DNA from: a virus
Taxonomy: Duplodnaviria; Heunggongvirae; Uroviricota; Caudoviricetes
Length of the DNA: 64,000 bases
IMG/VR virus record: IMGVR_UViG_2531839524_000004
Direction: 5' to 3' (one strand)
Shown here: positions 15,913 to 59,172 of the stretch, one piece after another
Numbering within the stretch: position 1 is the first letter of the stretch
Layout of the letters: every line of letters begins with the position of its first letter
Position numbers and translations under genes: made by a program
Notes under the pieces: model-generated
Database searches by the model: none
What the model was told of the DNA's origin: nothing
Seen by the model: the letters and a program-made list of their open reading frames with translations, nothing else

Positions 15913-15976
15913 AAACCTCTTTCCTTAGTGCCTTTTGTATGTTATTTGGCTATTATAATAAGTAAGTGATTACTTA

Positions 15977-16675
15977 GTGGATTGTAGCAATAAAATGGAT
16001 GTAAAAATCACGATTTTGCAGGTTGATGTTGCCAACCTTCGCCCGAATACCTGGAACACCAATTCGGTTGGTGCGCAGAATTTTGAAAAACTGAAAGGTT
16101 CTATCGAAAAATTGGGCTTTTTTAAGCCAATTTTGGCTCGTGAACTTGAAGATGGATTTTTTGAAATCCTCGGCGGCGAACATCGCTGGCGTGCTGCTAT
16201 TGAGCAAGGAATTTCAACGGTTCCGGTGCTTTCTGTGGGCAAAATTAGCGATGTCGTAGCTAAACAGATGTCACTGGTGGACAACGAGCGATACGGTGAA
16301 GACGACCAAATCGCATTGCAACGCTTCATTGAAGAAATTCAGTCAGAACTTGACTATCAACTGTCTGAAATCGCCCCGTATGACGACGAAATCTCGATGG
16401 TTTTAGCAAAAGAGGCGGCAATCGACCTTGAAGCACTGGAGGCGTTGTCTCGTGGTAGTGATGAGCCTGTCGATACCGACAAACGAGAGAAAACCGAACG
16501 TGTGGGTGCGGAACATCAGACCATGCGCTTCAAAGTAACTTTCGATGCGTCAGATCGTGTTGCAGAAACCATAAAAAACATCATCAAAGAGCAGGCTATT
16601 AACACCGGTAATGAAATGGAGAACGCTGGTGAGGCTCTGGTGTGGCTGGTCGACTACTACAAGGAGCGTATGTAA
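15977..16675 (+). CDS. ParB/Srx-fold nuclease-like domain protein 1
   Basis: N-terminal ParB-like core ...FKPILARELEDGFFEILGGEHRWRAA...; acidic C-terminus; start could be 15995. Confidence 0.7.
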   Translation: MDCSNKMDVKITILQVDVANLRPNTWNTNSVGAQNFEKLKGSIEKLGFFKPILARELEDGFFEILGGEHRWRAAIEQGISTVPVLSVGKISDVVAKQMSLVDNERYGEDDQIALQRFIEEIQSELDYQLSEIAPYDDEISMVLAKEAAIDLEALEALSRGSDEPVDTDKREKTERVGAEHQTMRFKVTFDASDRVAETIKNIIKEQAINTGNEMENAGEALVWLVDYYKERM

Positions 16676-17343
16676 TGACCAAAAAGTTTGAAATCGTATA
16701 TCGCGACCCGGCAGATCTTATTCCCTATGAGATGAATGCCAAAAAGCATGATGAACAGCAGATCCGAGATCTGGCCGCAGCCATTAAAAAGCGCGGATTT
16801 GACCAGCCAATTACGGTCGATAAGAACGACGTAATTATTACTGGCCACGGCCGCCGTGAGGCTGCAATTTTTGCTGGACTTGAGCGCGTACCGGTTATTG
16901 TTCGCGATGATCTCAGTGATGACGAGGTTCGTGCGAAGCGCCTTGAAGATAACCGACTTGCCAGCATTGATTACGATGCAATTAAGCTACAGAAAGAGCT
17001 TGAGTCGCTCGTTCTGGACGATATCGAGGTTTTCGGCTTTGAAGAGCGTGAGTTGAATGTTCTCGTTGGCAGTATGACAGAAGAAATGGACACCGACTCG
17101 CTAGTTATCGATCTTGGCGAAGAAACTAAACGACAGAAGGATGAACACACCGAGATCAGTCGTGAAGTTGCAGCGGAAGAAGTACGTGTTGTCGACGTAT
17201 TGGGCTTTAAAACGCTCCCTGCTGGCTCTGCCATTGTTGTTGGTGATTTGCTTGCCCACATGGAAGAAATGACGGGAGAAAGCGGGGTAGACGCATTTGT
17301 GGCATATGCGGAGAAGATCTCTTCCGGGGAGATGGCTGCATGA
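16675..17343 (+). CDS. ParB/Srx-fold nuclease-like domain protein 2
   Basis: ...FDQPITVDKNDVIITGHGRREAA...; start at MTKKFEIVY overlaps the upstream stop (TAATG), implying translational coupling. Confidence 0.7.
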   Translation: MTKKFEIVYRDPADLIPYEMNAKKHDEQQIRDLAAAIKKRGFDQPITVDKNDVIITGHGRREAAIFAGLERVPVIVRDDLSDDEVRAKRLEDNRLASIDYDAIKLQKELESLVLDDIEVFGFEERELNVLVGSMTEEMDTDSLVIDLGEETKRQKDEHTEISREVAAEEVRVVDVLGFKTLPAGSAIVVGDLLAHMEEMTGESGVDAFVAYAEKISSGEMAA

Positions 17344-18005
17344 GCAAATACATCATCAACGTATCGTTTCAGACACGCGTAAATAAAACCACGCGCACGT
17401 TGGAAATCGCTGAGTCGTTCGGGCTTGGCCTGGACGAAAAAGAGTGGACGCTTTACGACAATCTGGAGCTGGAAGTGAAGCAGGGCGATGTGGTGTACAT
17501 CACCGGCCAATCCGGTTCCGGCAAATCCGTTGTGCTGCGCGAGTTGCAACGACAGATGAAGGATGAAGGGCTGTCTGTAGCCTCCATCGATGATTTTACC
17601 TTCGATAATGAGGTTAACGTCATCGATCAGTTGGGCAAAACGACCAGTGATGCGCTTGGGTTGTTATCTATGGCTGGTCTGAACGATGCATATCTGTTTG
17701 TTCGCAAGCCTTCTGAAATGTCAGACGGCCAGAAATATCGTCTCAAGATTGCCAAACTGATTGAGTCAGGCGCTAAAGTGTGGGCTGCTGACGAGTTCGG
17801 CGCTGTTCTCGACCGTGTAACCGCTCAGGTTGTGGCGTCTAACCTCCAGCGTGCCGCGCGAAAGGTTGGTGCGACGGTAATGGTGGCGACGACTCACGAA
17901 GACCTGAAGAACGCGCTGCGCCCGGATATGCAGATCACCAAGCACTACAAAGAACGCGTGAAGGTGGAATATCACAATGGTAGTCATGATGAGGTCCATT
18001 CATGA
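17340..18005 (+). CDS. small ABC-type ATPase
   Basis: Walker A GQSGSGKS, signature-like MSDGQKYRL, Walker B VWAADEF, H-loop TTHE; start overlaps upstream stop (ATGA). Confidence 0.65.
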   Translation: MSKYIINVSFQTRVNKTTRTLEIAESFGLGLDEKEWTLYDNLELEVKQGDVVYITGQSGSGKSVVLRELQRQMKDEGLSVASIDDFTFDNEVNVIDQLGKTTSDALGLLSMAGLNDAYLFVRKPSEMSDGQKYRLKIAKLIESGAKVWAADEFGAVLDRVTAQVVASNLQRAARKVGATVMVATTHEDLKNALRPDMQITKHYKERVKVEYHNGSHDEVHS

Positions 18006-18892
18006 CGGACATCATCATTAAACGCTACCGCCCTGAAGAGTTTCCGCGTCATCTGGACTTTCTGGAGCGAATGACTGTTACAAAGGGAACTGTAGAGGAC
18101 TGGCACGCTCTTAAGTCGCTTCACTACAAAACAGACGGCAAACCTTTCGCGCCAACTTACTATCGCTGCGAACTTGATGACCGTCTGGTGGGCGTCGTGG
18201 TTATGGCTTACCCGAAACTACTGTTGGCACCTCGCCACCGCATGTTTCCTAAGTTGAAACCAACCACTAATACCACCGTGGCTAACCAGTACTGGGGTCG
18301 GTACGTGAATAACAACTTTGCGGTGATCAGTCGCTCAGTTGTGGATACTCAGTATCGTGGCGTAGGCGTCTCTTATCGAATGATTAACCTGGTTAGCAGG
18401 ATGCATGACCGGCCAATCATTGAGATCCAGTCCTCGATGAGCAAATACAATCCCTTCGCCATGAAAGCAGGGTTTAAGTTCATCCGCCCTGAGCGACCGA
18501 AGAGCTATGAAAGTGCACTGCGTGTATTCCAGCGCCATTTTCGTTCCGACCCGGGTGATAACGAGGCGATCGTCAAAGAGTTGTTCGCAATGAGCGAGTC
18601 TCGTCGTCGCCGTGCACTGCGTGATCTGGTGGCGGACTACCATAAGAACAGTTCCCTGGCAAAAGCTGGGCGGAATCGTGGCACGACGATTCAGGACATT
18701 GCCGACAGTCTGGTGGACGAGGCCAGCATTGTGAAGTTGCTCAAGGACATTCACAACCTGAGCTTTACGTCTCCGTTGTATGGGGTGTATCGAAACCCTG
18801 ACTTTGGTCGTCGACTGCCTGACACGCTGCCACTGCTGGCATTCGACAAACAACCTTTGGATAAACCGTTAGAAATTGCTTTACCGGCATAA
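18002..18892 (+). CDS. hypothetical protein, possible GNAT-type acyltransferase fold
   Basis: 296 aa; motif-A-like QYRGVGVSYRMINLV; assignment is weak; start overlaps upstream stop (ATGA). Confidence 0.4.
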   Translation: MTDIIIKRYRPEEFPRHLDFLERMTVTKGTVEDWHALKSLHYKTDGKPFAPTYYRCELDDRLVGVVVMAYPKLLLAPRHRMFPKLKPTTNTTVANQYWGRYVNNNFAVISRSVVDTQYRGVGVSYRMINLVSRMHDRPIIEIQSSMSKYNPFAMKAGFKFIRPERPKSYESALRVFQRHFRSDPGDNEAIVKELFAMSESRRRRALRDLVADYHKNSSLAKAGRNRGTTIQDIADSLVDEASIVKLLKDIHNLSFTSPLYGVYRNPDFGRRLPDTLPLLAFDKQPLDKPLEIALPA

Positions 18893-18901
18893 GGATTTGC
18901 C

Positions 18902-19168
18902 ATGACGTTAACCGATAAACAAAAGGACATCATCAAAACGCTCAATCTCGGTTATGAGCGAGGTCATCTACTTGATCTGGACGAATTGCTTGAAGTTTTG
19001 CCGTACAAGACAACCAAGCAAAGTATCCAGTTCTCAATTCGCGCTCTGATAAAAAAGGGGCTTGTGGAGAAAGGGCATACGCGCCAACGCAGTGACAATC
19101 GCTATCACCGCCGAACTCTTGGGTTAACCACTTTAGGTCGAGCCAAAGCGAAGTTACTGGTGATGTAA
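18902..19168 (+). CDS. hypothetical small protein, possible winged-helix DNA-binding fold
   Basis: ORF track, 88 aa, basic C-terminus; fold assignment is a guess. Confidence 0.35.
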   Translation: MTLTDKQKDIIKTLNLGYERGHLLDLDELLEVLPYKTTKQSIQFSIRALIKKGLVEKGHTRQRSDNRYHRRTLGLTTLGRAKAKLLVM

Positions 19169-19192
19169 TCGGTCTGGGAGCTTATTTAAAGA

Positions 19193-19249
19193 CCTGCTTC
19201 TGTATATATAAATAATAAGTAACTTATTAAATATATATACGGAAGCAGG
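19193..19249. repeat. 57-bp AT-rich palindromic repeat, copy 1
   Basis: cctgcttctgtatatataaataataagtaacttattaaatatatatacggaagcagg; identical copy at 50746-50802. Confidence 0.8.
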
Positions 19250-19286
19250 CTTAATAAGACATGCCCAGACCTAATTAAACAACCCA

Positions 19287-19301
19287 GAAAACAAGTTGGT
19301 T
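19287..19301. promoter_or_regulatory. operator-like palindrome GAAAACAA-G-TTGGTT
   Basis: First of two copies ahead of the small terminase gene. Confidence 0.45.
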
Positions 19302-19312
19302 AGAAAATGCAG

Positions 19313-19328
19313 TAAACAAGTTGTTTTA
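19313..19328. promoter_or_regulatory. operator-like palindrome TAAACAA-G-TTGTTTTA
   Basis: Second copy, about 40 bp upstream of ATG 19367. Confidence 0.5.
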
Positions 19329-19366
19329 GAGCGCATGGACGCGCTCTGTGTGTTTTAGAGGGATCT

Positions 19367-19999
19367 ATGACGGTCGAAAAAGACGAGGTAAAAACTCGCC
19401 TGACACCAGCGGAGTGGGCCGAAGCTGAAGCCAAATGGACGTCAGGCGAATATACACTCTCAAAGCTGGAGGAAGAGTACGGCATTCGTCGTGAAACACT
19501 CTCCAGACATTTCAAAAAGCGAGGATTAGAGAAAGGCGCGGACTCTGTTGGGAAGATGGTTCGTGAGTCTCTTAAATCTGACGCAGAGCTTCGCGCTAAA
19601 GCCCGTGCGGAAAAGATAGAAGAACGTCGTACACGTTATGACGGCTGGGCGTATGCGTTGGGGCAGATGGTGATGGTCGAAGTCACTACGGCCAAACGTG
19701 AGGGTAAGCCTTTAGGGGCGATTGAGGATTCTCTCAAGAGCTTACAGAGAGCCAGTAATACCCTTGCAAAATGCTTTGAAGTTTCGTCCAAAGCATTGGG
19801 CATGGATCATGCGGAAAATGACGAGGAAGAAATTCCGAACCTGGTATTTGGTGAGCTTACGCCTTCCCAGGTGGCGAAATTACGTCAGGAAGACGACGAG
19901 CCTGAAATCATCGATGACGAATTGCTTGAGACGTTGGAAGAAGAAGCTCTAAGCGAATTTGATGCGACAGATGATGGAAGTGAAGGGGAGGACGAATAA
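19367..19999 (+). CDS. terminase small subunit (putative)
   Basis: 210 aa directly upstream of the large terminase; N-terminal HTH-like region and acidic tail; call by position. Confidence 0.6.
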   Translation: MTVEKDEVKTRLTPAEWAEAEAKWTSGEYTLSKLEEEYGIRRETLSRHFKKRGLEKGADSVGKMVRESLKSDAELRAKARAEKIEERRTRYDGWAYALGQMVMVEVTTAKREGKPLGAIEDSLKSLQRASNTLAKCFEVSSKALGMDHAENDEEEIPNLVFGELTPSQVAKLRQEDDEPEIIDDELLETLEEEALSEFDATDDGSEGEDE

Positions 20000-21255
20000 T
20001 GGCAATCCCGTCCTCGCTCAGTCTTGTGCAACTGCATTCTGGACAGATGAAAGTCTTCCAGTCTCCGCATCGATTTAAAGTTGTTTGTGCTGGTCGACGC
20101 TGGGGAAAATCCCGGTTGTCGATCTCCACTATTATTCGTGCGGCGGCAAAGGAAAAAAAGCAAAGGGTCTGGTATGTCGCTCCTACTTACCAGATGGCTC
20201 GCCAGATTTTGTGGGACGATCTACAGGAAGTTCTGCCTCGTAAGTGGGTTAGGAAAAAGAACGACACCACGATGACAATCGTGTTGAAGAACGGTTCGGA
20301 GATCGCCCTCAAAGGTGCTGATAAGCCTGACACTCTGCGCGGCGTAGCGTTGCATTTTGTAGTGCTTGATGAATTTCAGGATATGAAGGCTGACACCTGG
20401 TACAAGGTGTTACGACCTACTCTTTCATCGACACGCGGCGGTGCACTGATCATTGGTACGCCAAAAGGTTTCTCGGAATTTCACAAACTGTGGACTATAG
20501 GCCAGAACGTAGAGCTGCAAAGAAAGGGACAGTGGAAGAGCTGGCAGTTTGTAACTGCCGATTCTCCGTTTGTGCCTACGGCGGAAATTGAAGCTGCTAA
20601 GAACGATATGGACCCGAAATCGTTCGCTCAGGAGTACCTGGCGAGCTTTGAGAACATGTCCGGGCGCGTTTACTACCCGTTCGATCGTAACGTGCATGTA
20701 AAACCGCTTCAGTTCAACCCTCGGTTGCCTATATGGGTAGGGCAGGACTTCAACATTGACCCGATGTCTTCAGTAATTTTGCAACCTCAGCCAAATGGTG
20801 AGCTATGGGCAATTGATGAATTGGTGCTCTTTTCCTCTAACACGGCAGAGGTTTGTGATGAGCTTGAGAGACGCTTCTGGCGCTGGAAATCACAGATAAC
20901 GGTATTTCCAGATCCGGCAGGTGCTTATCGCCAACATGCTCGCGGGGAGTCTGACGTCGACATATTCAAAGAGAAGGGATTCTTACGTGTCGATTATTCG
21001 AAAAAGCCCCCGCCAATTGCGGATCGTGTTAATGCTGTTAACCGAATGCTGATGACCGCATCTGGAGATATCCGGTTGTATATCGATCCGAAGTGCAAGC
21101 ATTTGATTGATTCACTGGAAAAAGTCATCTACAAGCCTGGAACACGAGATATGGATAAGACAGGTGGCATTGAGCATAGTGCAGACGCATTGGGCTATCC
21201 AGTACATCGTAGGTATCCAGTCAAAAACCGTGTTATTCTTGGTGGTTCTCGATAG
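19999..21255 (+). CDS. terminase large subunit
   Basis: Walker A VCAGRRWGKS, Walker B HFVVLDEF, C-terminal nuclease-like acidic residues; 418 aa. Confidence 0.9.
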   Translation: MAIPSSLSLVQLHSGQMKVFQSPHRFKVVCAGRRWGKSRLSISTIIRAAAKEKKQRVWYVAPTYQMARQILWDDLQEVLPRKWVRKKNDTTMTIVLKNGSEIALKGADKPDTLRGVALHFVVLDEFQDMKADTWYKVLRPTLSSTRGGALIIGTPKGFSEFHKLWTIGQNVELQRKGQWKSWQFVTADSPFVPTAEIEAAKNDMDPKSFAQEYLASFENMSGRVYYPFDRNVHVKPLQFNPRLPIWVGQDFNIDPMSSVILQPQPNGELWAIDELVLFSSNTAEVCDELERRFWRWKSQITVFPDPAGAYRQHARGESDVDIFKEKGFLRVDYSKKPPPIADRVNAVNRMLMTASGDIRLYIDPKCKHLIDSLEKVIYKPGTRDMDKTGGIEHSADALGYPVHRRYPVKNRVILGGSR

Positions 21256-21281
21256 GTAAGTAATTATCTAAGGTTATTCAA

Positions 21282-22856
21282 ATGGAATTGAACGACAAAC
21301 AAATTAAGGATCTGGTGGCGCGACGCCACCCGGAATACGAAAAGAAAAAAGAACATTGGGACTTCCTCGCCAGCACTTACGCTGGCGGGCGTGGTTGGTT
21401 TACAGACAATATCTTTCGTTACTTTAAAGAGGGAGATCAGGAGTTTAAGGAGCGAGTTGAGCGTGCTTATCGCTTCAACCACACTCGTGAGGTGGTAAAC
21501 CTCATCAACAAATATCTCTTTAAAGAAGACATTCATAGAAATATCGAAGAGGCACCAGAGCAGATCCGCAATTTCTGGAAACGTGCGACTCGCCAGAATG
21601 CCTCTATTGACTCATTTATGGCCGCTATTGATTTGCAGTCGTCTATTTACGGTCGCATATGGGTTGTTGTCGATAGCACGATGAGTGGTGATGTTGAGTC
21701 AGTAGCTGACGAGAAAAAGAAAGATGCTCGCGCCTACGCCTACTGGATTTCACCTCAGCAAATGCTGGATGTGGCATGGGACGACGACGGGAATATGTTG
21801 TGGGCGTTAATTGTGGAAGTCGCTCGTGATGACGCAGATCCTTTTACTTCTACAGGTCAGGAATACCAACGTTATCGTCTGTGGACACAAAACGAGTGGT
21901 ATCTGTTCCGTGAGGAAGTGAAGAAGGGCGCTGGTGGAGCAGGTCGCCGTCAGGCAAAAGTTATTTTAGAGGATAGCGGTGAGCATAATCTCGGCGTAGT
22001 TCCTGTGTTTCCTGTTGATTGTATTGGAGAAAGTGAATCACCGTATTTCAGCCCATCGTTGATCGATGATATCGCTTATCTTGATCGTGCGGTTGCAAAC
22101 TATCTGTCAAACCTTGATGCCATTATTCAGGATCAGACATTTAGCCAGTTGGCTATACCGGTACAGTCGCTTTTACCTGGTGATGAAAACCACACTAAAG
22201 TGCTTGAAATGGGCACAAAGCGAGTCTTCACCTACGATTCTGAAGGTGGAAACCAGCCGTTTTATCTGTCACCAGACCCGAAACAAGCTCAGATGATCAT
22301 CACTACGATTAAGACGGTGATTAACGAAATCTACCATTCAGTTGGTGTAGCTGGTGAGCGAACGAAGCAGGACAACGCACAGGGAATCGATAATTCATCT
22401 GGTGCCGCAAAAATGTATGACTTCCAGCGTGTAAATAGCTTGCTTGTCACAAAAGCAGAGCGTCTGGAAAGGGCTGAACGCCAAATCATGCTACTGGTTG
22501 CGAAATGGATGGGGGTAGATCTGGACGAAGACCACTCTTTAATTGCGTATCCAGAAAGTTTCGATATTCGTGGCCTTACTGATGAATTTTCTGTTGCCGA
22601 GAAACTGTCATTACTTCAGGCACCGGACTCTGTACGTCGTCACCAGATGGAAATGCTTATTGAGAAGATTTTCCCGAACATTACTGAGGCGATGAAAAAG
22701 GAATTTGATAAAGATCTCTTGAATTTTCCTCCAAAAAATGATCTAAATACCCTTGAAAATAAGTCAGTACTTACTTATGATCGTGGTGCAGCCCAAGAAA
22801 GCGGGCAAGATCAACCCCGAGGGAATGGGGACTCATCTACTCAAGAGAACGAGTGA
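21282..22856 (+). CDS. portal protein (putative)
   Basis: 524 aa immediately after the large terminase; call by size and synteny. Confidence 0.7.
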   Translation: MELNDKQIKDLVARRHPEYEKKKEHWDFLASTYAGGRGWFTDNIFRYFKEGDQEFKERVERAYRFNHTREVVNLINKYLFKEDIHRNIEEAPEQIRNFWKRATRQNASIDSFMAAIDLQSSIYGRIWVVVDSTMSGDVESVADEKKKDARAYAYWISPQQMLDVAWDDDGNMLWALIVEVARDDADPFTSTGQEYQRYRLWTQNEWYLFREEVKKGAGGAGRRQAKVILEDSGEHNLGVVPVFPVDCIGESESPYFSPSLIDDIAYLDRAVANYLSNLDAIIQDQTFSQLAIPVQSLLPGDENHTKVLEMGTKRVFTYDSEGGNQPFYLSPDPKQAQMIITTIKTVINEIYHSVGVAGERTKQDNAQGIDNSSGAAKMYDFQRVNSLLVTKAERLERAERQIMLLVAKWMGVDLDEDHSLIAYPESFDIRGLTDEFSVAEKLSLLQAPDSVRRHQMEMLIEKIFPNITEAMKKEFDKDLLNFPPKNDLNTLENKSVLTYDRGAAQESGQDQPRGNGDSSTQENE

Positions 22857-22877
22857 TAAGTAACAAAAGGAATTTTT

Positions 22878-23765
22878 ATGAATCTGTGGCAAATGCTTTT
22901 GGCCCGTCGTGGTCTGATGGATGTCGCTGAAGCGCATGAGCGTGGAGGCGCTGGCGGTGTAGCTGCTGATAATGAGCAGAGTACACAAGATCCTGACAAA
23001 CAGGGTGAACAAAAAGAGCAGCCGAAGGGCGATGACGAATACGCTGGCATGACTCAGGAAGAGTTACTGGCCGAACTTCGTAAAACCAAGAAAGCTGGTG
23101 CTGAACTGCTGAAGGAGAACATGAAGCGCAAAGAGAAAGAGCGCACATTGGCCGATCAGCTTGCTCAGTACGGTGATATCGATCCGGCTCGTGCTCGCCA
23201 GCTTTTAGAAGCTGAACAGGCCGCAGAAAACGCACGTCGTGAGGCGGAGCAAGCTGAACTGGAGCGTCGTGGGGAGTTCGATGCTGTTAAAAAACAGATG
23301 ATCGAAGCACACCAGGCAGAGCTGGCACAGCGTGACGAACGTTATGCAGCACTGGAAAGTGAAAACGCATCACTGAAATCTCAATTAGTCGAGATGACCG
23401 TGGGCGCTTCCTTCAGTAACTCTCTCTTCCTACGTGACAAAGTTCTGATGACCCCGGCAAAAGCCCGCGTGATCTACGGTTCTCATTTTGAAGTGGGTGA
23501 AGACGGTAGCGTAGTGGGTTATGACAAACCGGCAGGTCATAACGAACGAGCTGTTCTGGTTGACGGTGAAGGTAAGCCGTTGCCGTTTGAATCCGCGATT
23601 GAACGCATTGTGCGGGCAGATCCGGAAGCTGACGCATTGATGCGTAGCGAAGCCAAGCAGGGTGTAGGCTCACATTCCAAATCGACCTACACAATATCCC
23701 AACCGAAGAACAAGTCGACTATGGATAAGTTGGCCTCCGGTCTGGGGAAAATTGGACTTAAGTAA
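22878..23765 (+). CDS. scaffolding protein (putative)
   Basis: 295 aa, charged coiled-coil-like core (...AELERRGEFDAVKKQMIEAHQAELAQRDERYAALESENASLK...) between portal and capsid. Confidence 0.6.
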   Translation: MNLWQMLLARRGLMDVAEAHERGGAGGVAADNEQSTQDPDKQGEQKEQPKGDDEYAGMTQEELLAELRKTKKAGAELLKENMKRKEKERTLADQLAQYGDIDPARARQLLEAEQAAENARREAEQAELERRGEFDAVKKQMIEAHQAELAQRDERYAALESENASLKSQLVEMTVGASFSNSLFLRDKVLMTPAKARVIYGSHFEVGEDGSVVGYDKPAGHNERAVLVDGEGKPLPFESAIERIVRADPEADALMRSEAKQGVGSHSKSTYTISQPKNKSTMDKLASGLGKIGLK

Positions 23766-23790
23766 CATCTAAATCAAAGGGAATTGATAG

Positions 23791-24666
23791 ATGCCATTAC
23801 TGCGTGAAGAAGCTGAAAAGCTGTCTAACAACGAACTTGAACAGGGTGTGATCGAAACTATCATCGATCGCGATGACCTGTTTGCCATCCTGCCTTTTAT
23901 GAAAATTAATTCAAAGGCATATCTGTACAACCGTGAAAAAACGCTGAGTGAAGCTACCTTCATCGACGTTAACGACACCATCCCTGAAGGTGCGGCAACC
24001 TTCGAAGAATGCGTTGCGAAACTGCGTATTCTGGCTGGTGACGTAGACGTTGATAAATTCCTGGCGACCACTATGGCCGACACCAACAACCAGTTGGCTA
24101 TTCAGGTTCGTCAGAAAGTTAAAGGTCTGGCTCGTGCGTTCCGTCGCAACCTGATTTTGGGTGACTCCAGCTCCAACAACAAGGCGTTTGACGGCATTCC
24201 ACGCCTGATGCACGCAGATCAGAAGATCGATATCGCCGGTGCATCTATGACTTTCTCTATGTTCGACGAACTGGTCGATGCGGTGAAAGATCTTGGTGCT
24301 GACTGCATCATGATGCGTTCAGAGCACCTGCGTGCTTACCGTGCGCTGCTGCGTACAGTAAACGTAGGTCCGTCTGAAATCATGATGGAGAACTTCGGTC
24401 GTCCGATGCTGTGTCATAACGGCGTTCCGTTCATCATCAACGACTTCATCCCGACCGATTCTGGCAAAGCAAGCATCTACTGCCTGCATCTGTCAGAAGA
24501 GAACGGCGTTACTGGTCTGTATGGCGGCGACAACGCAGGTATCGTTGTTGAAAACATTGGTACTGTACAGAACAAAGACGCAGTACGTACCCGTGTGAAG
24601 TGGTACTGCTCTCTGGCGAATAAGCACGATAAGGCTATCGCTGCACTGACCAATGTAAAAATTTAA
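23791..24666 (+). CDS. major capsid protein (putative)
   Basis: 291 aa after scaffold; followed by a strong terminator; call by synteny. Confidence 0.6.
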   Translation: MPLLREEAEKLSNNELEQGVIETIIDRDDLFAILPFMKINSKAYLYNREKTLSEATFIDVNDTIPEGAATFEECVAKLRILAGDVDVDKFLATTMADTNNQLAIQVRQKVKGLARAFRRNLILGDSSSNNKAFDGIPRLMHADQKIDIAGASMTFSMFDELVDAVKDLGADCIMMRSEHLRAYRALLRTVNVGPSEIMMENFGRPMLCHNGVPFIINDFIPTDSGKASIYCLHLSEENGVTGLYGGDNAGIVVENIGTVQNKDAVRTRVKWYCSLANKHDKAIAALTNVKI

Positions 24667-24698
24667 TCAGTGTAGTAGATAAGTAGTTATCTATGTTA

Positions 24699-24727
24699 AA
24701 GGGTGGGCTATACGCCCACCCTTTTTG
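24699..24727 (+). terminator. intrinsic terminator after the capsid gene
   Basis: gggtgggc-tatac-gcccaccc followed by TTTTTG. Confidence 0.7.
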
Positions 24728-24739
24728 TAGGAGCGAGAA

Positions 24740-25660
24740 ATGCCAGAACAAAAGATGAAGATTACGGAAGAGGCATTTTCGGATTTTACGGGGCATATGT
24801 GCCGTGCCGGATTTACCAATTCTATCTCCGATGAACCTTTAACCGAGCGGCAACAAAGTCAGCTATCTGCTTGTTTGCAGGCGGTTCCCCTCTCCCAATC
24901 CGTAAACATAACCCCGGCTTCACCGTCAGTTTTGGTTGGGAAAACTGTTCAACTTAGTGCAGGTATTAGTATGGGTAAGAGTGCCAGTTCATTCACCTGG
25001 AAGTCAGCCAATGACCAAATTGCAACCGTTAACGGCACTGGATTAGTAACTGGCGTAGCCCCAGGCAAAGTAAAAATTACTGCAACTGATCAGGAAACCC
25101 AGCTTTCCGCTTCAGTGGAAGTCACCGTAAATCCGGTAGCCGTTCAATCCGTAACGGTAACGCCAGACTCAACCTCTGTTGAGAAAGGAAAATCAGTCAG
25201 TCTGAAAGCGAATGTTCAGCCGTCAAATGCGACGAATAAGGCTGTTACCTGGTCTTCCAAAAATGAAGATAAGGCAACGGTAGACCAGAGCGGGAACGTA
25301 ACTGGTGTAGAAGTTGGCACTGCGACGATTGAGATCGTTTCCCAAGATGGTAGCAAAAAGGCAACTGCAACGGTGGAAGTAACTGCGCCTGTTGTGGCTG
25401 TTACCGGCGTCGAAATCGACCCAAATAGCACAACCGTTGAGGCAAACAAAACTGTTCAGCTGACAGCAAATGTCGAGCCGGCAGGAGCCACAAATAAAAC
25501 CGTTACTTGGGAATCTAAAAATACCGAGTTTGCAACGGTTGACAGCGAAACCGGTGTTGTAACTGGTGTTGCGGCTGGTACTGCCACAATCGAGGTTACT
25601 ACCCAAGATGGTAGCCACAAAGCGACAGCGACCGTAGAAGTCACTGCTGCACAGGAATAA
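24740..25660 (+). CDS. Ig-like (Big_2-type) repeat protein, likely head decoration/fibre
   Basis: Three tandem about 85-aa repeats each ending ...ATVD.(S/T)G.VTGV..G.A.I...; same repeat type recurs at the C-terminus of the major tail protein. Confidence 0.7.
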   Translation: MPEQKMKITEEAFSDFTGHMCRAGFTNSISDEPLTERQQSQLSACLQAVPLSQSVNITPASPSVLVGKTVQLSAGISMGKSASSFTWKSANDQIATVNGTGLVTGVAPGKVKITATDQETQLSASVEVTVNPVAVQSVTVTPDSTSVEKGKSVSLKANVQPSNATNKAVTWSSKNEDKATVDQSGNVTGVEVGTATIEIVSQDGSKKATATVEVTAPVVAVTGVEIDPNSTTVEANKTVQLTANVEPAGATNKTVTWESKNTEFATVDSETGVVTGVAAGTATIEVTTQDGSHKATATVEVTAAQE

Positions 25661-25704
25661 TCAATATTGGGCGGCGAAAGCCGCCCATGTAGAGAGAATG
25701 CGTT

Positions 25705-26139
25705 ATGAAACCAGCAAAAATTGTTTTATTAGAACCGCAATTTTCCGGTTATTCGGGAATGTTGTGCGGCGTTCAGTTCGAGAACGGGGTGTCCGTAGCG
25801 GAGTTGCCTTTTATCGATCAGCAAAGGATTTGTGCCTCAATGCGAGCATCAACAGTCGAGGGCAAAAATGTTTCTCCGTCTGCCGCATACAGTGATCGTG
25901 GCGAGTTGACCGCAGACCTGATTACCGAGCCAGCAGCACCTGACATTGTGCCAATGAAACGTGGGACACCAGATGAACCGGCCAAACAGATCCAGACTTT
26001 CACACGAGAAGAGTTGGAGTCAATTGCAGACAATGAAGGCATTGCCGGTCTACGTGTGATTGGTAATCAGGTTGGTGTCAAAGCGAAAGGAATTGTCGAG
26101 ATGATTGAAGGCATCCTGAAAGCACAAGGCGGTGAGTAA
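25705..26139 (+). CDS. hypothetical head-module protein
   Basis: ORF track, 144 aa. Confidence 0.4.
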   Translation: MKPAKIVLLEPQFSGYSGMLCGVQFENGVSVAELPFIDQQRICASMRASTVEGKNVSPSAAYSDRGELTADLITEPAAPDIVPMKRGTPDEPAKQIQTFTREELESIADNEGIAGLRVIGNQVGVKAKGIVEMIEGILKAQGGE

Positions 26140-26972
26140 TGGCGCAGATCGACTCGTATCGCAGCGGTGAAGCTGTTTCCCTTTCATTTGCCTTCAACGT
26201 GCTGGATATCGAATCTGCTACCTACACAGTAAAGGACAGCACCGGGGCTATTCTCGTTGATGGCGAGCCGCTAGAAATTACCAGCGGTCAAATGTCGATT
26301 CCGGTTGTCGTGTCGGCTGAATATAACCAGCTCTCTGAGAAAGAGCGAGATCTGCGGTACGTCATTGTGAAGGCTGTTGCATCGGGTCTGACGCATGAAG
26401 AGCGGCAAATGTATGTTCTGCTGAATAGTTTTGAACTGTCGATACCAGAACAGTCGTTTGCAACTGTCGCTGATGCTCAAATGCAGGCGATCGATATGCT
26501 GAATGGGGACACTTTGCTGTCGGATGGTGAAGGCTTAATGCGCAAGCGTCTCATTGAGGCTACCAGACGAATTAAAACTTTACCGTTCTCAATCCGCAAA
26601 ATTCTACGTATCGACTTTGACCGATACGATCGCCCTCAAAATATGCTGAATGTGTATGACATTCCGTGGGGAGCAGATGGAGCGTACCGGCATGATTTAG
26701 TCGATTGGGAAAAGATGACGCAGGAGAAGTTTGAAGAGTTCCCTGACTACTTCAAAGAAGCGTTGATGCTTGCCGTTGTCAACGAAGCGTGTGAGATCGC
26801 AAATGGCAATGATGTAGCCGCAGCACGAGAGGATGGCATTTTGTCAGAGTCCATCGGTGAAACAACCAACATGTACCGTACCGGTAAAGCTGCAAACGTG
26901 CATGTGGCTCGTAGTACCTGGCGCTTGCTGGTCAGTTACATCAACAACCGTATGATTGTTCGCCGTGCGTAA
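26139..26972 (+). CDS. hypothetical head/connector-module protein
   Basis: ORF track, 277 aa; start overlaps upstream stop. Confidence 0.4.
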   Translation: MAQIDSYRSGEAVSLSFAFNVLDIESATYTVKDSTGAILVDGEPLEITSGQMSIPVVVSAEYNQLSEKERDLRYVIVKAVASGLTHEERQMYVLLNSFELSIPEQSFATVADAQMQAIDMLNGDTLLSDGEGLMRKRLIEATRRIKTLPFSIRKILRIDFDRYDRPQNMLNVYDIPWGADGAYRHDLVDWEKMTQEKFEEFPDYFKEALMLAVVNEACEIANGNDVAAAREDGILSESIGETTNMYRTGKAANVHVARSTWRLLVSYINNRMIVRRA

Positions 26973-27051
26973 CGCCAGTCGCATTATTTACTTTTGGTCG
27001 AAAGGGTTTTTGGCCAGTAATGAGAGCGACCGACAACAACAGGGAGAGAGC

Positions 27052-27396
27052 ATGAATATTTCATGGCAAACAGAAATTGCGATCTACCGCTTTGGCGCAA
27101 AGAACGTATACGGCGAGGCGCAATTACAATTCGTCAGGAAGACGAATGTCGGCGTGGTTAAGTTCGAACAGAGTAATGAGAAATCGTCAGTTCGTGCTGA
27201 TAGCTCTGGTAGTCGTGGTAAGGCGAGTCTGGAGCTGTTTGATGCTGTGTTAGTTGTCCCTTTAGAAGCGGCTGTACAACTTGATGATGTGCTGATCCTT
27301 GAAGGTCAAAAATTAAAGGTGTCCAGTGTTCATCGCCGCTGGGGGCTACGAGGAAGACCTGGGCATCTTGAAGTGGGGGCGAATATATGGGTCTGA
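27052..27396 (+). CDS. hypothetical head-tail joining protein
   Basis: ORF track (26956-27396); start moved to MNISWQ after RBS GGGAGAGAG. Confidence 0.4.
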   Translation: MNISWQTEIAIYRFGAKNVYGEAQLQFVRKTNVGVVKFEQSNEKSSVRADSSGSRGKASLELFDAVLVVPLEAAVQLDDVLILEGQKLKVSSVHRRWGLRGRPGHLEVGANIWV

Positions 27397-27860
27397 AATA
27401 CGATGCGCATCAGTTCAAACGTGCGGGGAATAGACTCAATAACAGCCAGAAAGCATTTAAGCGATATCTTATTCGGGACATGGAAAAGCTGGCGCGTTTG
27501 GTTGAGCGTCTCAGCCGTGCAATGGCCCCGCTGGAAACCGGATCTCTGGAGACAGCCATCTTTGCCAGGGTGATTAAAGAAGGTTATTCAGGGCTGCGCA
27601 TTGAGCTTTCTGTGTCTGGAGCAAAACCACGTCAGGGGCATCCGGGCGTAGAAGTCGGTGACTATGCTAAGTACATGGAGCTGGGTAAATACCGACTCGG
27701 TTATCTTTCTCGAATGAAGAACGTGACAAACCCACCAATTGCCGGTGTTAAACCTCGTGTTGGGCCACACTTTCTGGAAAGAGCGGTGGAAATTAGCGAG
27801 AAGCAGTTCTCAGAAGCGATTCTTGAGGCTGCCAGAAAAGCCGGTTTTACGAGAGGTTAA
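27387..27860 (+). CDS. hypothetical head-tail joining protein
   Basis: ORF track, 157 aa. Confidence 0.4.
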   Translation: MGLKYDAHQFKRAGNRLNNSQKAFKRYLIRDMEKLARLVERLSRAMAPLETGSLETAIFARVIKEGYSGLRIELSVSGAKPRQGHPGVEVGDYAKYMELGKYRLGYLSRMKNVTNPPIAGVKPRVGPHFLERAVEISEKQFSEAILEAARKAGFTRG

Positions 27861-27861
27861 T

Positions 27862-28245
27862 GTGTTTATTGAAGCGTTTGCAAGTTTGATGCAGAAGGCA
27901 AAGATTGGCACGGTCGGGGCTGACATTTTCTGTCACTACTTGCCTGCCAATGTGAAATCTGGCGTCCTGCTTATTAACCCAAATACCGGTATCAGCATCG
28001 ATCATGAGCTACAGGGCTTTTACCACGAATCATTCACAATAATTGTGCGTGGTTCGTCAATTACTACGACGGTTGAGAAAGCCAATAAAATCATTGAGAT
28101 GTTTCCAGTAGAGGAAACGGAATCTGGTGGTGTTTATTTTCGACTGGTACGACCGATGGCGATGCCAATCATTTATCCCAAAAATGATGGAGCATTAATA
28201 GAAGCAGGCATTCCTGTTGAATTTGCTGGCTATTTATTGAATTAA
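27862..28245 (+). CDS. hypothetical tail completion protein
   Basis: In-frame GTG right after the upstream stop (VFIEAFASLMQ...); the ATG at 27739 would overlap the preceding gene. Confidence 0.4.
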   Translation: MFIEAFASLMQKAKIGTVGADIFCHYLPANVKSGVLLINPNTGISIDHELQGFYHESFTIIVRGSSITTTVEKANKIIEMFPVEETESGGVYFRLVRPMAMPIIYPKNDGALIEAGIPVEFAGYLLN

Positions 28246-28319
28246 GTTAATCGGTAAGTATATACTTATTGTTAGCGCAATGAATGCGTAGAATTAACGG
28301 AAAAAGGAGTTTTCCATCA

Positions 28320-29066: not shown

Positions 29067-29079
29067 TCAGTAATTAAGC

Positions 29080-29106: not shown

Positions 29107-29121
29107 AAAGGATTTTAACCA

Positions 29122-34368: not shown

Positions 34369-34410
34369 CTATCGACTGCCCCGGTCGGGGCAGTCTCACA
34401 AGGATGTGAG

Positions 34411-34746: not shown

Positions 34747-34825
34747 GTATCTGGATAAGTAAGTACTAATTTACTATCATTGTGGCGCTGACAGGATGTT
34801 AGCGCCTACTTATTTCAAGGATGAA

Positions 34826-41643: not shown

Positions 41644-41736
41644 TGGTGGAAAAAAAATTTTATATCGGTAAGAATAGGTAAGTACTTACTTAATGGCGGG
41701 CAAGGATAGCCCGCCAAATCAAGGAGCATATTCAAC

Positions 41737-45645: not shown

Positions 45646-45848
45646 TTTAGGGATTATTTATATGGCTGTGTGGTTTAAAAATGCGATTTCACAGCCGCAA
45701 TCATAGGGATATATTAGTGAGTTACTAGATGCGAATATGAACAACCGTTAAACGGTATATGTATAGGTAGGTAAGTATATACCTACAATTAAAAGGAGAA
45801 GTGTGATATAAATCCGCCATCCCGATTTGACTTTTCACGGAGGAAAAC

Positions 45849-50635: not shown

Positions 50636-50745
50636 TATTGCATCTCTTTGCTACTGACTAATGCGTTCTATTTTACACATAAGTTTTTAATCAATTTAAC
50701 AGGCTCAAAGTGTAGAGCTTCTGGGCGTCTAAGACGACAAGTTAG

Positions 50746-50802
50746 CCTGCTTCTGTATATATAAATAATAAGTAACTTATTAAATATATATACGGAAGCA
50801 GG
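50746..50802. repeat. 57-bp AT-rich palindromic repeat, copy 2
   Basis: Identical to 19193-19249; lies in the divergent promoter region between the GIY-YIG gene and gene 50910. Confidence 0.8.
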
Positions 50803-50909
50803 TCTTTTAAAAGACACCACCAGAACAACTCCCTTCCGTTTCCACTTCCAAAAACTGCCACCAGTCGCTATCATCCGCTCATTGTGATAAGTAAGTAACT
50901 ACCTACCAG

Positions 50910-51659
50910 GTGAGCCACATGAGCCAAATCTTTTTCGATACCATCGACAACGACCAGTACGACTTCATGACAGAGTGGAATACCGCTGTTATGGACAAGT
51001 GGGTCGCTGAAAACATTGGTTTGTCGCGCTGTAAAGACGAGGCTGAACTCTTCGAGACGAAGTGGTTTGATTACCGCGACATGCATCCTCTCATGGCCAC
51101 CTGTCTTTTTACGGAGGCATACAAACGTCAGTACTCAAATATCATGCTGACGCACGGTCGCGAACACTTTGAAACAGCTCCGTTCACCACCGGGTTAAAA
51201 CGCCTGCCTTATCAGGAGTTGTCGACTGCCAATAAAACGTCGCTATGGAAAGCACGCCAGTTTGCGGATCGCTATTGCTGCTCATACGACTACTTTATCT
51301 CCACCGTTCTTTCCGCAGCTGCACGACGGCTGTGGGACAAGCTGCCGCGCCCACAGCATTTGTGGCAGCCAGAACTGATTGAGATATTTGAAGAGAAATT
51401 AGCCAGACGCGCAACAACCCGTCTGGATGACTCTCTGGTTAGCTTTAAGCATATGGGAGACATGCAGTTCAACCCGATTCAGGAAAGCTATTTTGAGTGG
51501 ATTCTGGAGCGTTTGCGCACCATCCCTCGCAGCAAGCGCATACGCGCAATTTTCTCCGCTATCTGGCTAATGGAAATCGTTCCAGAGCGCCTTATTTCCG
51601 CCCACTTTCCAGAAGAACTGGAAGAAGCACGGCGGTTTATTGATCCCCTATCTAATTAA
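50910..51659 (+). CDS. hypothetical protein (replication module; initiator or helicase loader is possible)
   Basis: ORF track, 249 aa, immediately upstream of the DnaB-like helicase. Confidence 0.45.
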   Translation: MSHMSQIFFDTIDNDQYDFMTEWNTAVMDKWVAENIGLSRCKDEAELFETKWFDYRDMHPLMATCLFTEAYKRQYSNIMLTHGREHFETAPFTTGLKRLPYQELSTANKTSLWKARQFADRYCCSYDYFISTVLSAAARRLWDKLPRPQHLWQPELIEIFEEKLARRATTRLDDSLVSFKHMGDMQFNPIQESYFEWILERLRTIPRSKRIRAIFSAIWLMEIVPERLISAHFPEELEEARRFIDPLSN

Positions 51660-55335: not shown

Positions 55336-55516
55336 TTTTGGATTTTCACAAGATGGTTAGGTGGTTGTGGCTACTCGGTGTAAGGCTTTGTAATCACCGA
55401 TTGGTAAGGTTACTTCAATTTAGCTTAACTGTCAGCATACCCAATCGCCGAAAAGATAAGTAGATGATTACTTATTAGTGTGTAAGAATACTGCCATCTG
55501 TTAGCTAGGAGTTGGT

Positions 55517-56299
55517 ATGAAAGAAGAAATTAAGAGATTAGCCTGCAACATCATTGATAAAACTGGTTTAGAAATCAGCGAGAGCAATCGGCTAGACATC
55601 ATTGAAAAAGCCGTCAATACGGCAATGGATCATATCGCCACTCGTTTGGTCGAGATCCCGCTACCGGGGCTACCTTATCTGAAGGTTAAGTTGCGCGTAT
55701 GGGGCGAACCTGCACATGCACGACGTTCTGCATTAGTTGTTTTTGTACGCAAAGAAAACTTACGAACTCTAAAAGTGCAGGTTGGGGCGTGGTTTGATGG
55801 CAGAGTCATCTATACAGATACCATTATCTGTCCTCCAGGTGACGAACATATTGAAGCCGTCATTCGAGAATCAATTCGAGCTATGCGCAGTTTAGCTTTG
55901 CTGGAAGACAAGCAAAACTTTGAAGATTACTTGCTGTCGGTAAAAGCTGAACCAACATTGTCTCTGAAAGCCGATTTCGTCACCCCGACAAATCTGTTGG
56001 AGGTTTTGATTAATAAAGGGGCTAATGATGCTGTAAACCTAATCAGGGAAAGCGAATATTCGACTCTTTGCGACATGTGCAAAAGCCAGTTGGATCTGGT
56101 GCATATCGTTATTGATGCTGGGAAGGCATGTGATGGCGTAATGGCTGAATTTGCTGGGAAGATGGTCAGGATTGCTAACGAATTACCGATGATAGAGCAA
56201 GAGGCCAAATCATACGCCACCAATCATGTCACAGAGCTTCTTGCCCCCTATCGCTTAGAAAGCGATCAGCGCAAGATGATTAGCTGGGGAAGTTGGTAA
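55517..56299 (+). CDS. hypothetical protein
   Basis: ORF track, 260 aa. Confidence 0.5.
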   Translation: MKEEIKRLACNIIDKTGLEISESNRLDIIEKAVNTAMDHIATRLVEIPLPGLPYLKVKLRVWGEPAHARRSALVVFVRKENLRTLKVQVGAWFDGRVIYTDTIICPPGDEHIEAVIRESIRAMRSLALLEDKQNFEDYLLSVKAEPTLSLKADFVTPTNLLEVLINKGANDAVNLIRESEYSTLCDMCKSQLDLVHIVIDAGKACDGVMAEFAGKMVRIANELPMIEQEAKSYATNHVTELLAPYRLESDQRKMISWGSW

Positions 56300-58156: not shown

Positions 58157-58332
58157 TGCTCGGCTGGATGATTGCATTTTTAGCAGTTGGGTTTTTCATA
58201 GGTATTGTGGTGATGTCCAGTTGCATCAATGACTACATTAAAAGCGGTGTTATAGAAAGACGCGGTCGTATTTATCGCATTGTAGAAATAACCAACACCC
58301 TGAAGGAGATTAAGGATGATCGTATTAAGTAA
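58153..58332 (+). CDS. small membrane protein (59 aa)
   Basis: Own translation MMLGWMIAFLAVGFFIGIVVMSSCINDYIKSGVIERRGRIYRIVEITNTLKEIKDDRIK; start overlaps the ligase stop (ATGA). Confidence 0.4.
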   Translation: MMLGWMIAFLAVGFFIGIVVMSSCINDYIKSGVIERRGRIYRIVEITNTLKEIKDDRIK

Positions 58333-58531
58333 ACGGGAGAAGGAAACGCTTCATGAAATCAGTAAGTGGCCGGAGTTCCCTGAGTACTGGAAGCCTAAAA
58401 CGCGAGCTAAGTTAGAGCGTTTAGGGTTGGTTGCAAACGTTTCTGAAACGTGGTGTTCGGCCAACTACCAGTTAACTGATAAAGGGAAAGTATTGCTACA
58501 GCAATTAGTAGAATCAGGAGTGTTAAAATGA
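58316..58531 (+). CDS. hypothetical small protein
   Basis: ORF track, 71 aa. Confidence 0.4.
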   Translation: MIVLSKREKETLHEISKWPEFPEYWKPKTRAKLERLGLVANVSETWCSANYQLTDKGKVLLQQLVESGVLK

Positions 58532-58680
58532 TTCCATACATCTCATTAGCTTTTATGGGTGGCTTCCTTATCGGCTTCGGCATCTGTCGTGATTTAATTA
58601 AGCAGGAACTTAAAACCAAAACACTGTGCATCGGAAAGCGTGTGTATCGGGTAGTTCATGAAACAAAGGTGAAAAAATGA
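58528..58680 (+). CDS. small membrane protein (50 aa), paralogue of 58153-58332
   Basis: Own translation MIPYISLAFMGGFLIGFGICRDLIKQELKTKTLCIGKRVYRVVHETKVKK; shares TM plus G(R/K)R.YR.VE.T with the 59-aa protein. Confidence 0.4.
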   Translation: MIPYISLAFMGGFLIGFGICRDLIKQELKTKTLCIGKRVYRVVHETKVKK

Positions 58681-58967
58681 GCAATTTAACTTCTTGGGAA
58701 TGGTGGTTGGCCACCTATTTCTTAGCGGCCGGAGTCGCATTCGCCTTTTACGTAGGTCAGTTAGTCGTAAAACTGTTGCTGATTAAATTTGCTAGTCATA
58801 AACGTATCGATGATGGTCTGTGGCGTCTTGGCACCCTGGTGGAAACTCGCTACGGGCAACTTAAGGAGAACGAAACCATTACTATCCAAGCGAAACGATT
58901 CACTGCCACCATTACAAGAACACCTAGTCGTAGAGTGGCCTTGATCAAAAAAGTCACAACCGAATAA
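58677..58967 (+). CDS. hypothetical membrane protein
   Basis: ORF track, 96 aa; N-terminal TM helix. Confidence 0.4.
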   Translation: MSNLTSWEWWLATYFLAAGVAFAFYVGQLVVKLLLIKFASHKRIDDGLWRLGTLVETRYGQLKENETITIQAKRFTATITRTPSRRVALIKKVTTE

Positions 58968-59172
58968 AAACATATTGATAAGTATTTACTTACTTATCTT
59001 TTGTGTATAAGATGACTTTGTTTTCGTTGAGACGCGACTGTTTGAACTTAAATACAAGTGCAAACGAAGAAGTCTATCTGGCAGTAGCCTAATAAGCCAA
59101 ACACCAGCGAGGTCAGTTTCCAGCCTCGTTACCGAAATGGGACACACTGAGCGAGTGGGATTGCAGAACGCA

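Follow-up and report, generated by a model that had tools for sequence, protein, structure and literature searches.

The 64,000-nucleotide stretch analyzed here (IMG/VR record IMGVR_UViG_2531839524_000004; hereafter the window) holds most of the genome of an SSU5-like siphovirus phage-plasmid of Escherichia coli, and the subject of this work is a family of palindromic repeats dispersed over it, together with a candidate repressor gene near its right end. From 15000 to 35000 the window is 98.7% identical to Escherichia phage CMS-2020a, 95–99% identical to PhiR41_1 and Cyrano, 81% identical to Salmonella phage SSU5, and ~79% identical to several Klebsiella phage-plasmids. Plasmids in 846 of 5426 complete E. 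coli genomes match part of it. The gene order is that of the Cyrano annotation: a leftward cluster with a UvsW-like helicase at its end; a rightward array of genes for ParB_N proteins, ATPases, terminase, head, tail, and lysis; and then parA, replication genes, tRNAs, a LexA-controlled integrase gene, and a convergent gene for a helix-turn-helix (HTH) “putative repressor.” Phage-plasmids of the SSU5/pHCM2/pSLy3 type are common in Enterobacteriaceae. They carry resistance genes and are inducible by ciprofloxacin (PMC9928086).

The first-pass annotation described the repeats as ATAAGTA and TACTTAT separated by 0 to 6 nt, in intergenic gaps. Its seven examples and the two copies that it called half-sites are all present in the sequence, no more than 1–2 nt from where it had placed them. 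The exact pattern ATAAGTA-N(0–8)-TACTTAT matches only twice (55456 and 58978). With up to two mismatches, the window contains 25 matches to TAAGTA-N2-TACTTA (2.0 expected) and 19 to TAAGTA-N6-TACTTA (1.8 expected), and at least 28 of the 44 TAAGTA/TACTTA hexamers lie in noncoding DNA, which is ~11% of the window. When the intergenic segments alone were shuffled with dinucleotides preserved (1000 shuffles), the mean number of intergenic site clusters was 0.09 and the maximum 2, against 10 observed. Among all 4096 hexamers H, TAAGTA ranks first as an inverted repeat with its reverse complement (H-N2/N6-rc(H)), and the next-ranked hexamers are its relatives TAGGTA, AGTAAG, GGTAAG, and GATAAG. The repeat family noted in the first pass is thus borne out, and the intergenic shuffles and the hexamer ranking rule out AT-rich composition as its cause. 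The supposed half-sites at 21255 and 34750 turn out to be full degenerate sites (21253–21270 and 34756–34773), and the earlier list lacked sites at 8904, 22760 (within the 3′ end of the portal gene), 50888, and 61864, as well as a weak one at 63897. The motif family is therefore nonrandom and wider than first listed.

The host-factor sites considered (Fur, NarL/NarP, and LexA) do not correspond to the motif. The Fur box, made of GATAAT repeats, differs in spacing. NarL/NarP 7-2-7 sites set heptamers of the type TACYYMT as TACYYMT-NN-AKRRGTA; the heptamer describes TACTTAT and TACCTAT, but in the present motif the order is reversed (AKRRGTA...TACYYMT). The LexA boxes of the window are separate elements.

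Four sequence sets (the window, what remains of Cyrano, SSU5, and 49 kb of Klebsiella pJN2-26) served to refine a symmetric 22-bp position weight matrix (PWM), which settled on 58 sites with the consensus RATARGTAAGT/ACTTACYTATY (the slash marks the center) and information at every position. The outer TARGTA is the strongest part, and the inner A, G, and T are conserved at 78, 74, and 84%, respectively. The ideal site is TAAGTAAGT joined to ACTTACTTA, with TAAG twice in each half. Because the half-site TAAG-TAAG-T repeats every 4 nt, apparent spacers of 0, 2, and 6 arise; the variable spacer of the first-pass annotation gives way to one fixed-center palindrome of 20–22 bp that captures all sites, two of which (8904 and 28251) become more symmetric when the register is moved by 2 bp. 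Such fixed geometry, with 58 sites under one symmetric matrix, suits a dimeric binder. In the window, 13 strong sites score 13–30 bits, 12 of them at least 19, and the next-best score is 7.2; peaks in shuffled windows are mostly 7–13 bits, with one at 17.4. Nearly all of the sites (53 of 58) are intergenic or at gene edges. In Cyrano there are 25 sites. The strong sites of the window and one weak variant are given below, without strand and with PWM scores in bits.

8902..8923: GTATTGTAAGTACATACTTACG, 13.1, with a perfect 14-mer TAAGTAcaTACTTA in the shifted register; after a terminator and 5′ of the gene at 8966–9361 (+); within the predicted promoter TTGTAA-17-TAGAAT (8905–8933); kept in SSU5 and Klebsiella pJN2-26.
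15957..15978: AATAAGTAAGTGATTACTTAGT, 21.7; divergent region between the UvsW-like helicase gene (14353–15912, −) and the first ParB_N gene, which heads a long rightward operon; a conserved −10-like TATTAT/TAGAAT lies 3 nt upstream; site conserved in SSU5 and Klebsiella.
21251..21272: GATAGGTAAGTAATTATCTAAG, 22.7, degenerate; junction of the large-terminase and portal genes; the Klebsiella ortholog is near-perfect (33.6).
22758..22779: AATAAGTCAGTACTTACTTATG, 26.4; within the portal gene at its 3′ end, ahead of the gene at 22878 and of the capsid gene; fills the spacer of the region's best sigma-70-like promoter, TTGAAA-17-TATGAT (22753–22781); identical in SSU5 and nearly so in Klebsiella.
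24674..24695: AGTAGATAAGTAGTTATCTATG, 19.3; 3′ of the major capsid gene and followed by a separate intrinsic terminator with a G+C-rich hairpin (24701–24717); the Klebsiella ortholog scores 32.9.
28249..28270: AATCGGTAAGTATATACTTATT, 22.4; 5′ of the major tail gene; shares bases with the −10 element of the predicted promoter TTGAAT-18-TATACT (28237–28266), both being conserved in SSU5 and Klebsiella.
34754..34775: GATAAGTAAGTACTAATTTACT, 24.2; between tail genes M and L, within the predicted promoter TGGATA-17-TATCAT (34752–34780); conserved.
41673..41694: AATAGGTAAGTACTTACTTAAT, 30.0, the best site of the window; between the J-like and tail-fiber genes; conserved in SSU5 along with an upstream TAAGAAT/TAAAAAT.
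45766..45787: GGTAGGTAAGTATATACCTACA, 22.8; after the tail-fiber gene, 5′ of the holin and lysis genes; the SSU5 junction reads TGTAGGTAAGCGCTTACCTACA.
50886..50907: GATAAGTAAGTAACTACCTACC, 25.4; adjoins the ribosome-binding site of the gene at 50910–51659, which lies ahead of the DnaB-like helicase and primase genes; conserved in SSU5.
55455..55476: GATAAGTAGATGATTACTTATT, 21.7; divergent region 5′ of the gene at 55517–56299 and the ligase operon; only the site and a downstream −10-like TGTAAGAAT are conserved between this spacer and that of SSU5.
58977..58998: GATAAGTATTTACTTACTTATC, 28.0; 3′ of the gene at 58677–58967 and 5′ of the tRNA cluster; conserved in SSU5 along with a downstream, −10-like TATAAGAT.
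61862..61883: GATAAGTATGCACATACCTATC, 26.9; 5′ of the glutaredoxin-like gene (open reading frame 61848–62171, a later ATG being the likely start); a predicted promoter, TTGATC-16-TATAAT (61822–61849), lies just 5′ of the site.
63894..63915: CTCTGGTAAGTGCTTACCGATA, core GGTAAGtgCTTACC, weak variant, 6.5; directly 3′ of the predicted promoter of the repressor gene.

The sites are conserved in position across genera. With at most one mismatch to the 14-mer allowed, there are 20 matches in SSU5, spread genome-wide, and 13 in Klebsiella pJN2-26 (0.02 expected in each), and the remaining part of Cyrano has 5 (0.07 expected). The junctions common to these genomes are helicase/ParB, terminase/portal, the 3′ end within portal, the end of the capsid gene, the upstream side of the major tail gene, M/L, J/fiber, and the positions before the holin and before the replication genes. 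In alignments, the palindrome stands as a conserved island between diverged spacers, and the degenerate window sites 21253 and 24676 are near-perfect in Klebsiella. The perfect 18-mer is found on many IMG/VR contigs of 60–113 kb, in up to three stretches per contig.

The first-pass annotation placed the repeats at module boundaries of the late region and suggested a link with promoters, and this part of it is supported: four of the few sigma-70-like matches of the late region coincide with sites, and the hexamers of the four site-coincident promoters (22753, 8905, 28237, and 34752) are conserved in SSU5 and Klebsiella. The best promoter score near the 58 sites has a median of 8.9, against 5.9 at random intergenic positions (Mann-Whitney p = 4e-15). 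With respect to the predicted start, the palindrome centers are spread between about −32 and +18. This spread of offsets fits repressor operators, not an activator site or a fixed promoter element. As a separate observation, sigma-70-like matches are depleted in this part of the window, with 10 between 28 and 48 kb (26.3 ± 4.7 expected from shuffles) and 16 between 44 and 64 kb (37.4 ± 6.1), which suggests that stray promoters are selected against where structural and replication genes lie. G+C-rich hairpins lie directly 3′ of two sites, GGCGCTGACAGGATGTTAGCGCC at 34784–34806 and GGCGGGcaaggatagCCCGCC, without a T-run, at 41693–41720. Both are conserved in SSU5 and could be structures in the 5′ untranslated regions of transcripts starting at the sites.

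The candidate binder is encoded at the right end of the window.

63480..63866, minus strand: gene for a 128-aa XRE-type HTH protein, identical to CYRAN_45 (“putative repressor”).

Profile searches match this protein to phrog_8 “transcriptional regulator” (1.3e-11) and, below the Pfam cut-off, to HTH_19 (E = 7.8e-4). Its AlphaFold2 (AF2) model has a predicted local distance difference test score (pLDDT) of 81–88 over residues 11–80 and matches the XRE domains of C.AhdI, SinR, P22 c2, and 434 repressor (template modeling score up to 0.78, root-mean-square deviation 1.5–1.9 Å), and also HigA; it predicts the five-helix XRE HTH fold. C-proteins, SinR, HigA, P22 c2, and 434 repressor bind palindromes as dimers. 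Between E. coli and Klebsiella the protein is 56% identical and its upstream region is unalignable except for one conserved stretch, TTTACA-16-TAATAT-CGGTAAGYACTTACC. The promoter match lies at 63940–63913 (−), and the conserved GGTAAGYACTTACC directly follows it in both. The copy at 63894 is thus positioned as a candidate autoregulatory operator.

All 55 homologs found are at least 55% identical to the repressor; they come from six genera, and the long contigs among them measure ~100–116 kb. The search returned no more distant homologs below ~55% identity, so that a wider test of covariation was impossible. The putative recognition helix, GYKNxNNLSLIKSGK, is invariant in Escherichia, Salmonella, Cronobacter, Citrobacter, Enterobacter, and Klebsiella, while the termini vary, and this invariance of the helix matches that of the motif. 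The sole natural variant of the helix, P0032 (GYKYQNQVSFIKSGK; E. coli contig ABZCOC010000014.1, 9731–10384), has five changes in it, N39Y, A40Q, N42Q, L43V, and L45F. In the 20 kb around P0032 the top inverted-repeat hexamer is TATGTA instead of TAAGTA, and the half-sites move toward TAWGTAAAT, with T at position 3 in 5 of 12 vs 6 of 116 half-sites (Fisher p = 0.001) and A at position 8, giving GTAAAT, in 6 of 12 vs 15 of 116 (p = 0.005). The shift includes sites orthologous to canonical ones. Genomes that are equally diverged but have the canonical helix, those of SSU5 and Klebsiella, keep the canonical motif. The helix variant thus seems to travel with a shifted motif, a suggestive case of covariation. 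It was confined to 20 kb because no full P0032-type genome could be matched, at 95% identity or more, among complete E. coli genomes or in PLSDB. The palindrome at the own promoter of P0032, TATAGGTAAATACTTACCAATA, scores as a strong site, and the P0032 lineage is a candidate for heteroimmunity.

The repressor is present in the E. coli and Klebsiella relatives and absent from SSU5. At ~42.6 kb of SSU5, corresponding to 60.4–64 kb of the window, the whole glutaredoxin/integrase/XRE-repressor block is missing and the sites are kept; in the E. coli and Klebsiella relatives this block lies between the tRNA genes and a cobT-like gene. SSU5 is used as a lytic biocontrol phage, and the missing repressor block may explain its lytic behavior.

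Profile searches found no S24 peptidase (RecA self-cleavage) domain in the 128-aa repressor, and therefore induction must work otherwise. The integrase gene (62382–63485, +) is convergent with the repressor gene, with a 3′ overlap of 6 nt, and a LexA (SOS) box, TACTGTTTACTTATACAGTG at 62336–62355, overlaps its promoter. In the Klebsiella relative the integrase gene is also preceded by a LexA box, a perfect one. The second box of the window, the perfect TACTGTATGTGTATACAGTA at 1334–1353, lies 5′ of a UmuD-like gene (1370–1759). Given a repressor without a cleavage domain, SOS-driven convergent transcription could be part of induction.

Expression in the plasmid state can be read from the RNA-seq of an LF82 lysogen carrying Cyrano (S1 table of PMC9928086). 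The repressor is expressed in the lysogen (96 vs a background of 9.8), and so are repA, the parA operon, toxin-antitoxin genes, and CYRAN_43 (same table). Genes directly 3′ of the 25 Cyrano sites have a median of 8.8 vs the background of 9.8. The ParB_N genes CYRAN_119 and CYRAN_120 are at floor or background, the first ParB_N gene being at the detection floor. Expression reaches 43 or more in 20 genes, 17 of them without an upstream site; the three exceptions are CYRAN_34, CYRAN_81 (with a weak site), and the divergent helicase gene. Under partly inducing conditions some genes next to sites clearly exceed their upstream neighbors, among them those for the major tail protein and the capsid and the one that follows recA.

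We infer that a protein binds these sites, that the XRE repressor is this protein, and that its binding represses. In favor of the XRE repressor are the conserved weak motif copy at its own promoter, the recognition helix shared by all genera, the shifted motif beside the single helix variant, and the lack of the gene in the lytic phage SSU5; the two helix observations bear indirectly on binding. In the reading that we favor, and hold to be somewhat probable, the repeats are operators of the 128-aa XRE-type protein, which would directly repress the lytic program at many places. About 25 copies per 108-kb genome of one ~20-bp palindromic operator, ATARGTAAGT/ACTTACYTAT, would sit on or beside sigma-70-type promoters at the head of the blocks for replication, recombination, nucleotide metabolism, structure, and lysis, some of these promoters lying within the long “late” gene array itself. 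A repressor dimer at each operator would, in the plasmid (lysogenic) state, occlude RNA polymerase, so that the whole lytic program would be silenced directly by operator-bound repressor, and the weaker copy 3′ of the repressor's own promoter would provide negative autoregulation. A more far-reaching version, which we consider improbable, has the XRE protein silencing the 108-kb element through ~25 operators and acting, beyond promoters, also as a roadblock within the 30-kb structural array, the portal site included, with immunity set by a few residues of the helix and P0032-type lineages heteroimmune, or else has a ParB/KorB-like regulator of the lytic cycle in its place.

Several points weigh against the operator reading. 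The association with promoters is partly circular, because the motif ends (GATA..., ...TATC+AT) are similar to −35 and −10 hexamers in their own right. The copy proposed for autoregulation has a low matrix score (6.5 bits). The covariation concerns one variant genome, 20 kb, and 12 half-sites, at positions picked after looking. In the lysogen, the site-adjacent CYRAN_34, CYRAN_81, and CYRAN_118 are moderately expressed, and across the sites transcript levels show no significant step-up when conditions are partly inducing (p = 0.14); the expression data fit repression and any model of lytic-specific promoters equally. A literature search found no binding or transcription experiment for this family.

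Other ways of using the sites have to be set against the operator reading. The first-pass annotation took the variable spacer as favoring an RNA stem-loop or a promoter element over a rigid dimer operator; the fixed center of the motif does not support the argument for a stem-loop. As RNA stem-loops the repeats would be processing sites, stabilizers, translational operators, or terminators. Most sites can form hairpins of 6–9 bp, several of which beat shuffles (z down to −6.3); the sites at 21251 and 50886 adjoin ribosome-binding sites, and the element encodes a FljA-like protein, of an mRNA-binding family. However, a functional hairpin should tolerate G.U and avoid A.C on the sense strand, and at mirrored positions of the palindromes G.U is not preferred (56 vs 54 A.C; at half-site position 3, A.C 13 vs G.U 7), the two half-sites varying independently between TAAGTA and TAGGTA. 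The predicted stems, rich in A+U, have little stability (−0.2 to −8.7 kcal/mol) and pair in different registers at different sites; the strong site at 50886 does not fold (−0.2 kcal/mol, z = +1.0), and the best-scoring one, at 41673, does no better than shuffles (z = −0.77). No U-tract was found at any of the palindromes, and where terminators are present they are separate neighboring hairpins, as at 24701–24717. Intrinsic terminators and RNA stem-loops were accordingly rejected as what the motif encodes, and we regard an RNA function as highly improbable. It is the sequence that is conserved and not the pairing, which points to a double-stranded DNA binding site. Were such a site part of a phage-specific promoter, bound by an activator or by a factor modifying RNA polymerase for middle or late transcription, one would understand why sites head nearly all lytic gene blocks, why many site-associated promoters have poor −35 hexamers, why ordinary sigma-70-like promoters are depleted in the late region (10 vs 26 expected), and why partly inducing conditions bring a sharp rise of some genes 3′ of sites, such as the major tail gene and the gene for a membrane protein after recA. 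To this we assign quite a low probability. Counted from the predicted −10 elements, the palindrome centers range over about −32 to +18, and several sites lie within the −35/−10 spacer of a near-consensus promoter (such as TTGAAA-17-TATGAT), where an activator could not work; one motif precedes both early-type (replication) and late-type (structural) genes; and a phage RNA polymerase or sigma-like gene is annotated in neither Cyrano nor SSU5.

The sites might also be operators, or DNA-organizing sites of the lytic cycle, for a different DNA-binding protein of the phage, an explanation that is unlikely but is the main rival of the operator reading. The ParB_N pair (15977–17343) could act as a KorB/ParB-type regulator or lytic-cycle DNA organizer; further candidates are the FljA-like protein (13052–13654, −) and the small regulators at 18902–19168 and 58316–58531. 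Proteins of the ParB family bind dispersed palindromes, with RK2 and N15 as precedents: KorB of RK2 represses many promoters through 12 sites, and in N15 four dispersed centromere sites affect lytic genes. Moreover, a ParB_N gene lies directly 3′ of the site at 15957, and SSU5, in which the sites are kept and the XRE repressor is missing, has conserved FljA-like and ParB_N proteins. Yet expression of the ParB_N genes in the lysogen does not rise above the detection floor, which excludes them as its silencer, and all of these candidates leave the site at the XRE promoter and the motif shift with the variant helix unexplained. FljA is known as an mRNA-binding regulator, and the copy in the window is only 67–80% identical to those of genomes with the same motif. 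The protein came into consideration because its conservation goes along with that of the motif; for its mRNA-binding family, and because the XRE-gene site and the motif shift would go unexplained, the FljA-like protein was ranked low as a binder.

In its own right, the gene at 13052–13654 (−) codes for a full-length homolog of FljA (PF03614, E = 2.5e-84), with a weak Hfq-like match at the C-terminus. FljA is the Salmonella repressor of phase-1 flagellin. The protein is conserved in SSU5 and in the Klebsiella and E. coli relatives, at only 67–80% identity between them, and it may serve the phage as a regulator or, as the product of a lysogenic-conversion gene, act on host flagellin.

The arrangement proposed for the XRE repressor has parallels among known systems. 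The phage-plasmid P1 encodes C1, whose well over a dozen scattered operators overlap the promoters of many lytic operons, so that immunity acts directly on many transcription units. Likewise, one candidate operator sequence is here dispersed over a ~100-kb plasmid prophage and overlaps many predicted lytic promoters; all 25 Cyrano sites lie upstream of lytic-type genes. C1 is a 283-aa protein unrelated to XRE that binds asymmetric 17-mer operators and controls the late genes indirectly via Lpa, whereas the present system would combine a 20-bp symmetric palindrome with a 128-aa XRE candidate and has sites also within the structural array. The likeness to P1 C1 would hence be one of mode of action and not of family membership. 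The stoperators of cluster A mycobacteriophages (L5 gp71) are similar in that 20–30 copies of a short motif lie, genome-wide, in the short gaps of long operons. Stoperators are asymmetric 13-mers in one orientation that block elongation and silence the prophage; the present sites, by contrast, are symmetric and coincide with predicted promoters, so that occlusion of initiation is a simpler reading than a roadblock. With the lambdoid repressors cI, 434, and P22 c2, the candidate shares the predicted HTH fold, palindromic operators (14–20 bp), and a copy at its own promoter; unlike them, it has no S24 peptidase domain, no tandem OR/OL cluster, and no divergent cro, and ~25 single operators would take the place of two operator clusters. 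Palindromes dispersed over a plasmid genome also recall the KorB regulon of RK2 and the SopB centromeres of N15. The KorB/SopB sites modulate many promoters, and their binders are ParB-family proteins made in the plasmid state, whereas the ParB_N genes here are silent in the lysogen. The principle of dispersed operators is already known; a literature search returned no earlier description of this motif or its putative regulon, or of the lysis-lysogeny control of SSU5-type elements.

If the operator reading is true, it defines an operator sequence, a candidate repressor, and a map of ~25 regulated promoters, and offers testable hypotheses on how these elements are silenced and induced. Immunity groups would then be predictable from sequence, and the lytic behavior of SSU5 would possibly be explained by its missing repressor module.

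Two minor features of the window deserve mention. Four tRNA genes (Asn, Tyr, Thr, and Ser) lie at 59746–60296, where Cyrano has three and SSU5 one. A 57-bp sequence, CCTGCTTCTGTATATATAAATAATAAGTAACTTATTAAATATATATACGGAAGCAGG, itself a long imperfect palindrome, occurs in two identical copies, one just 5′ of the small terminase gene (19192–19250) and the other 5′ of the replication block (50745–50803); possible roles are those of a pac- or ori-type element or of a terminator working in both directions.

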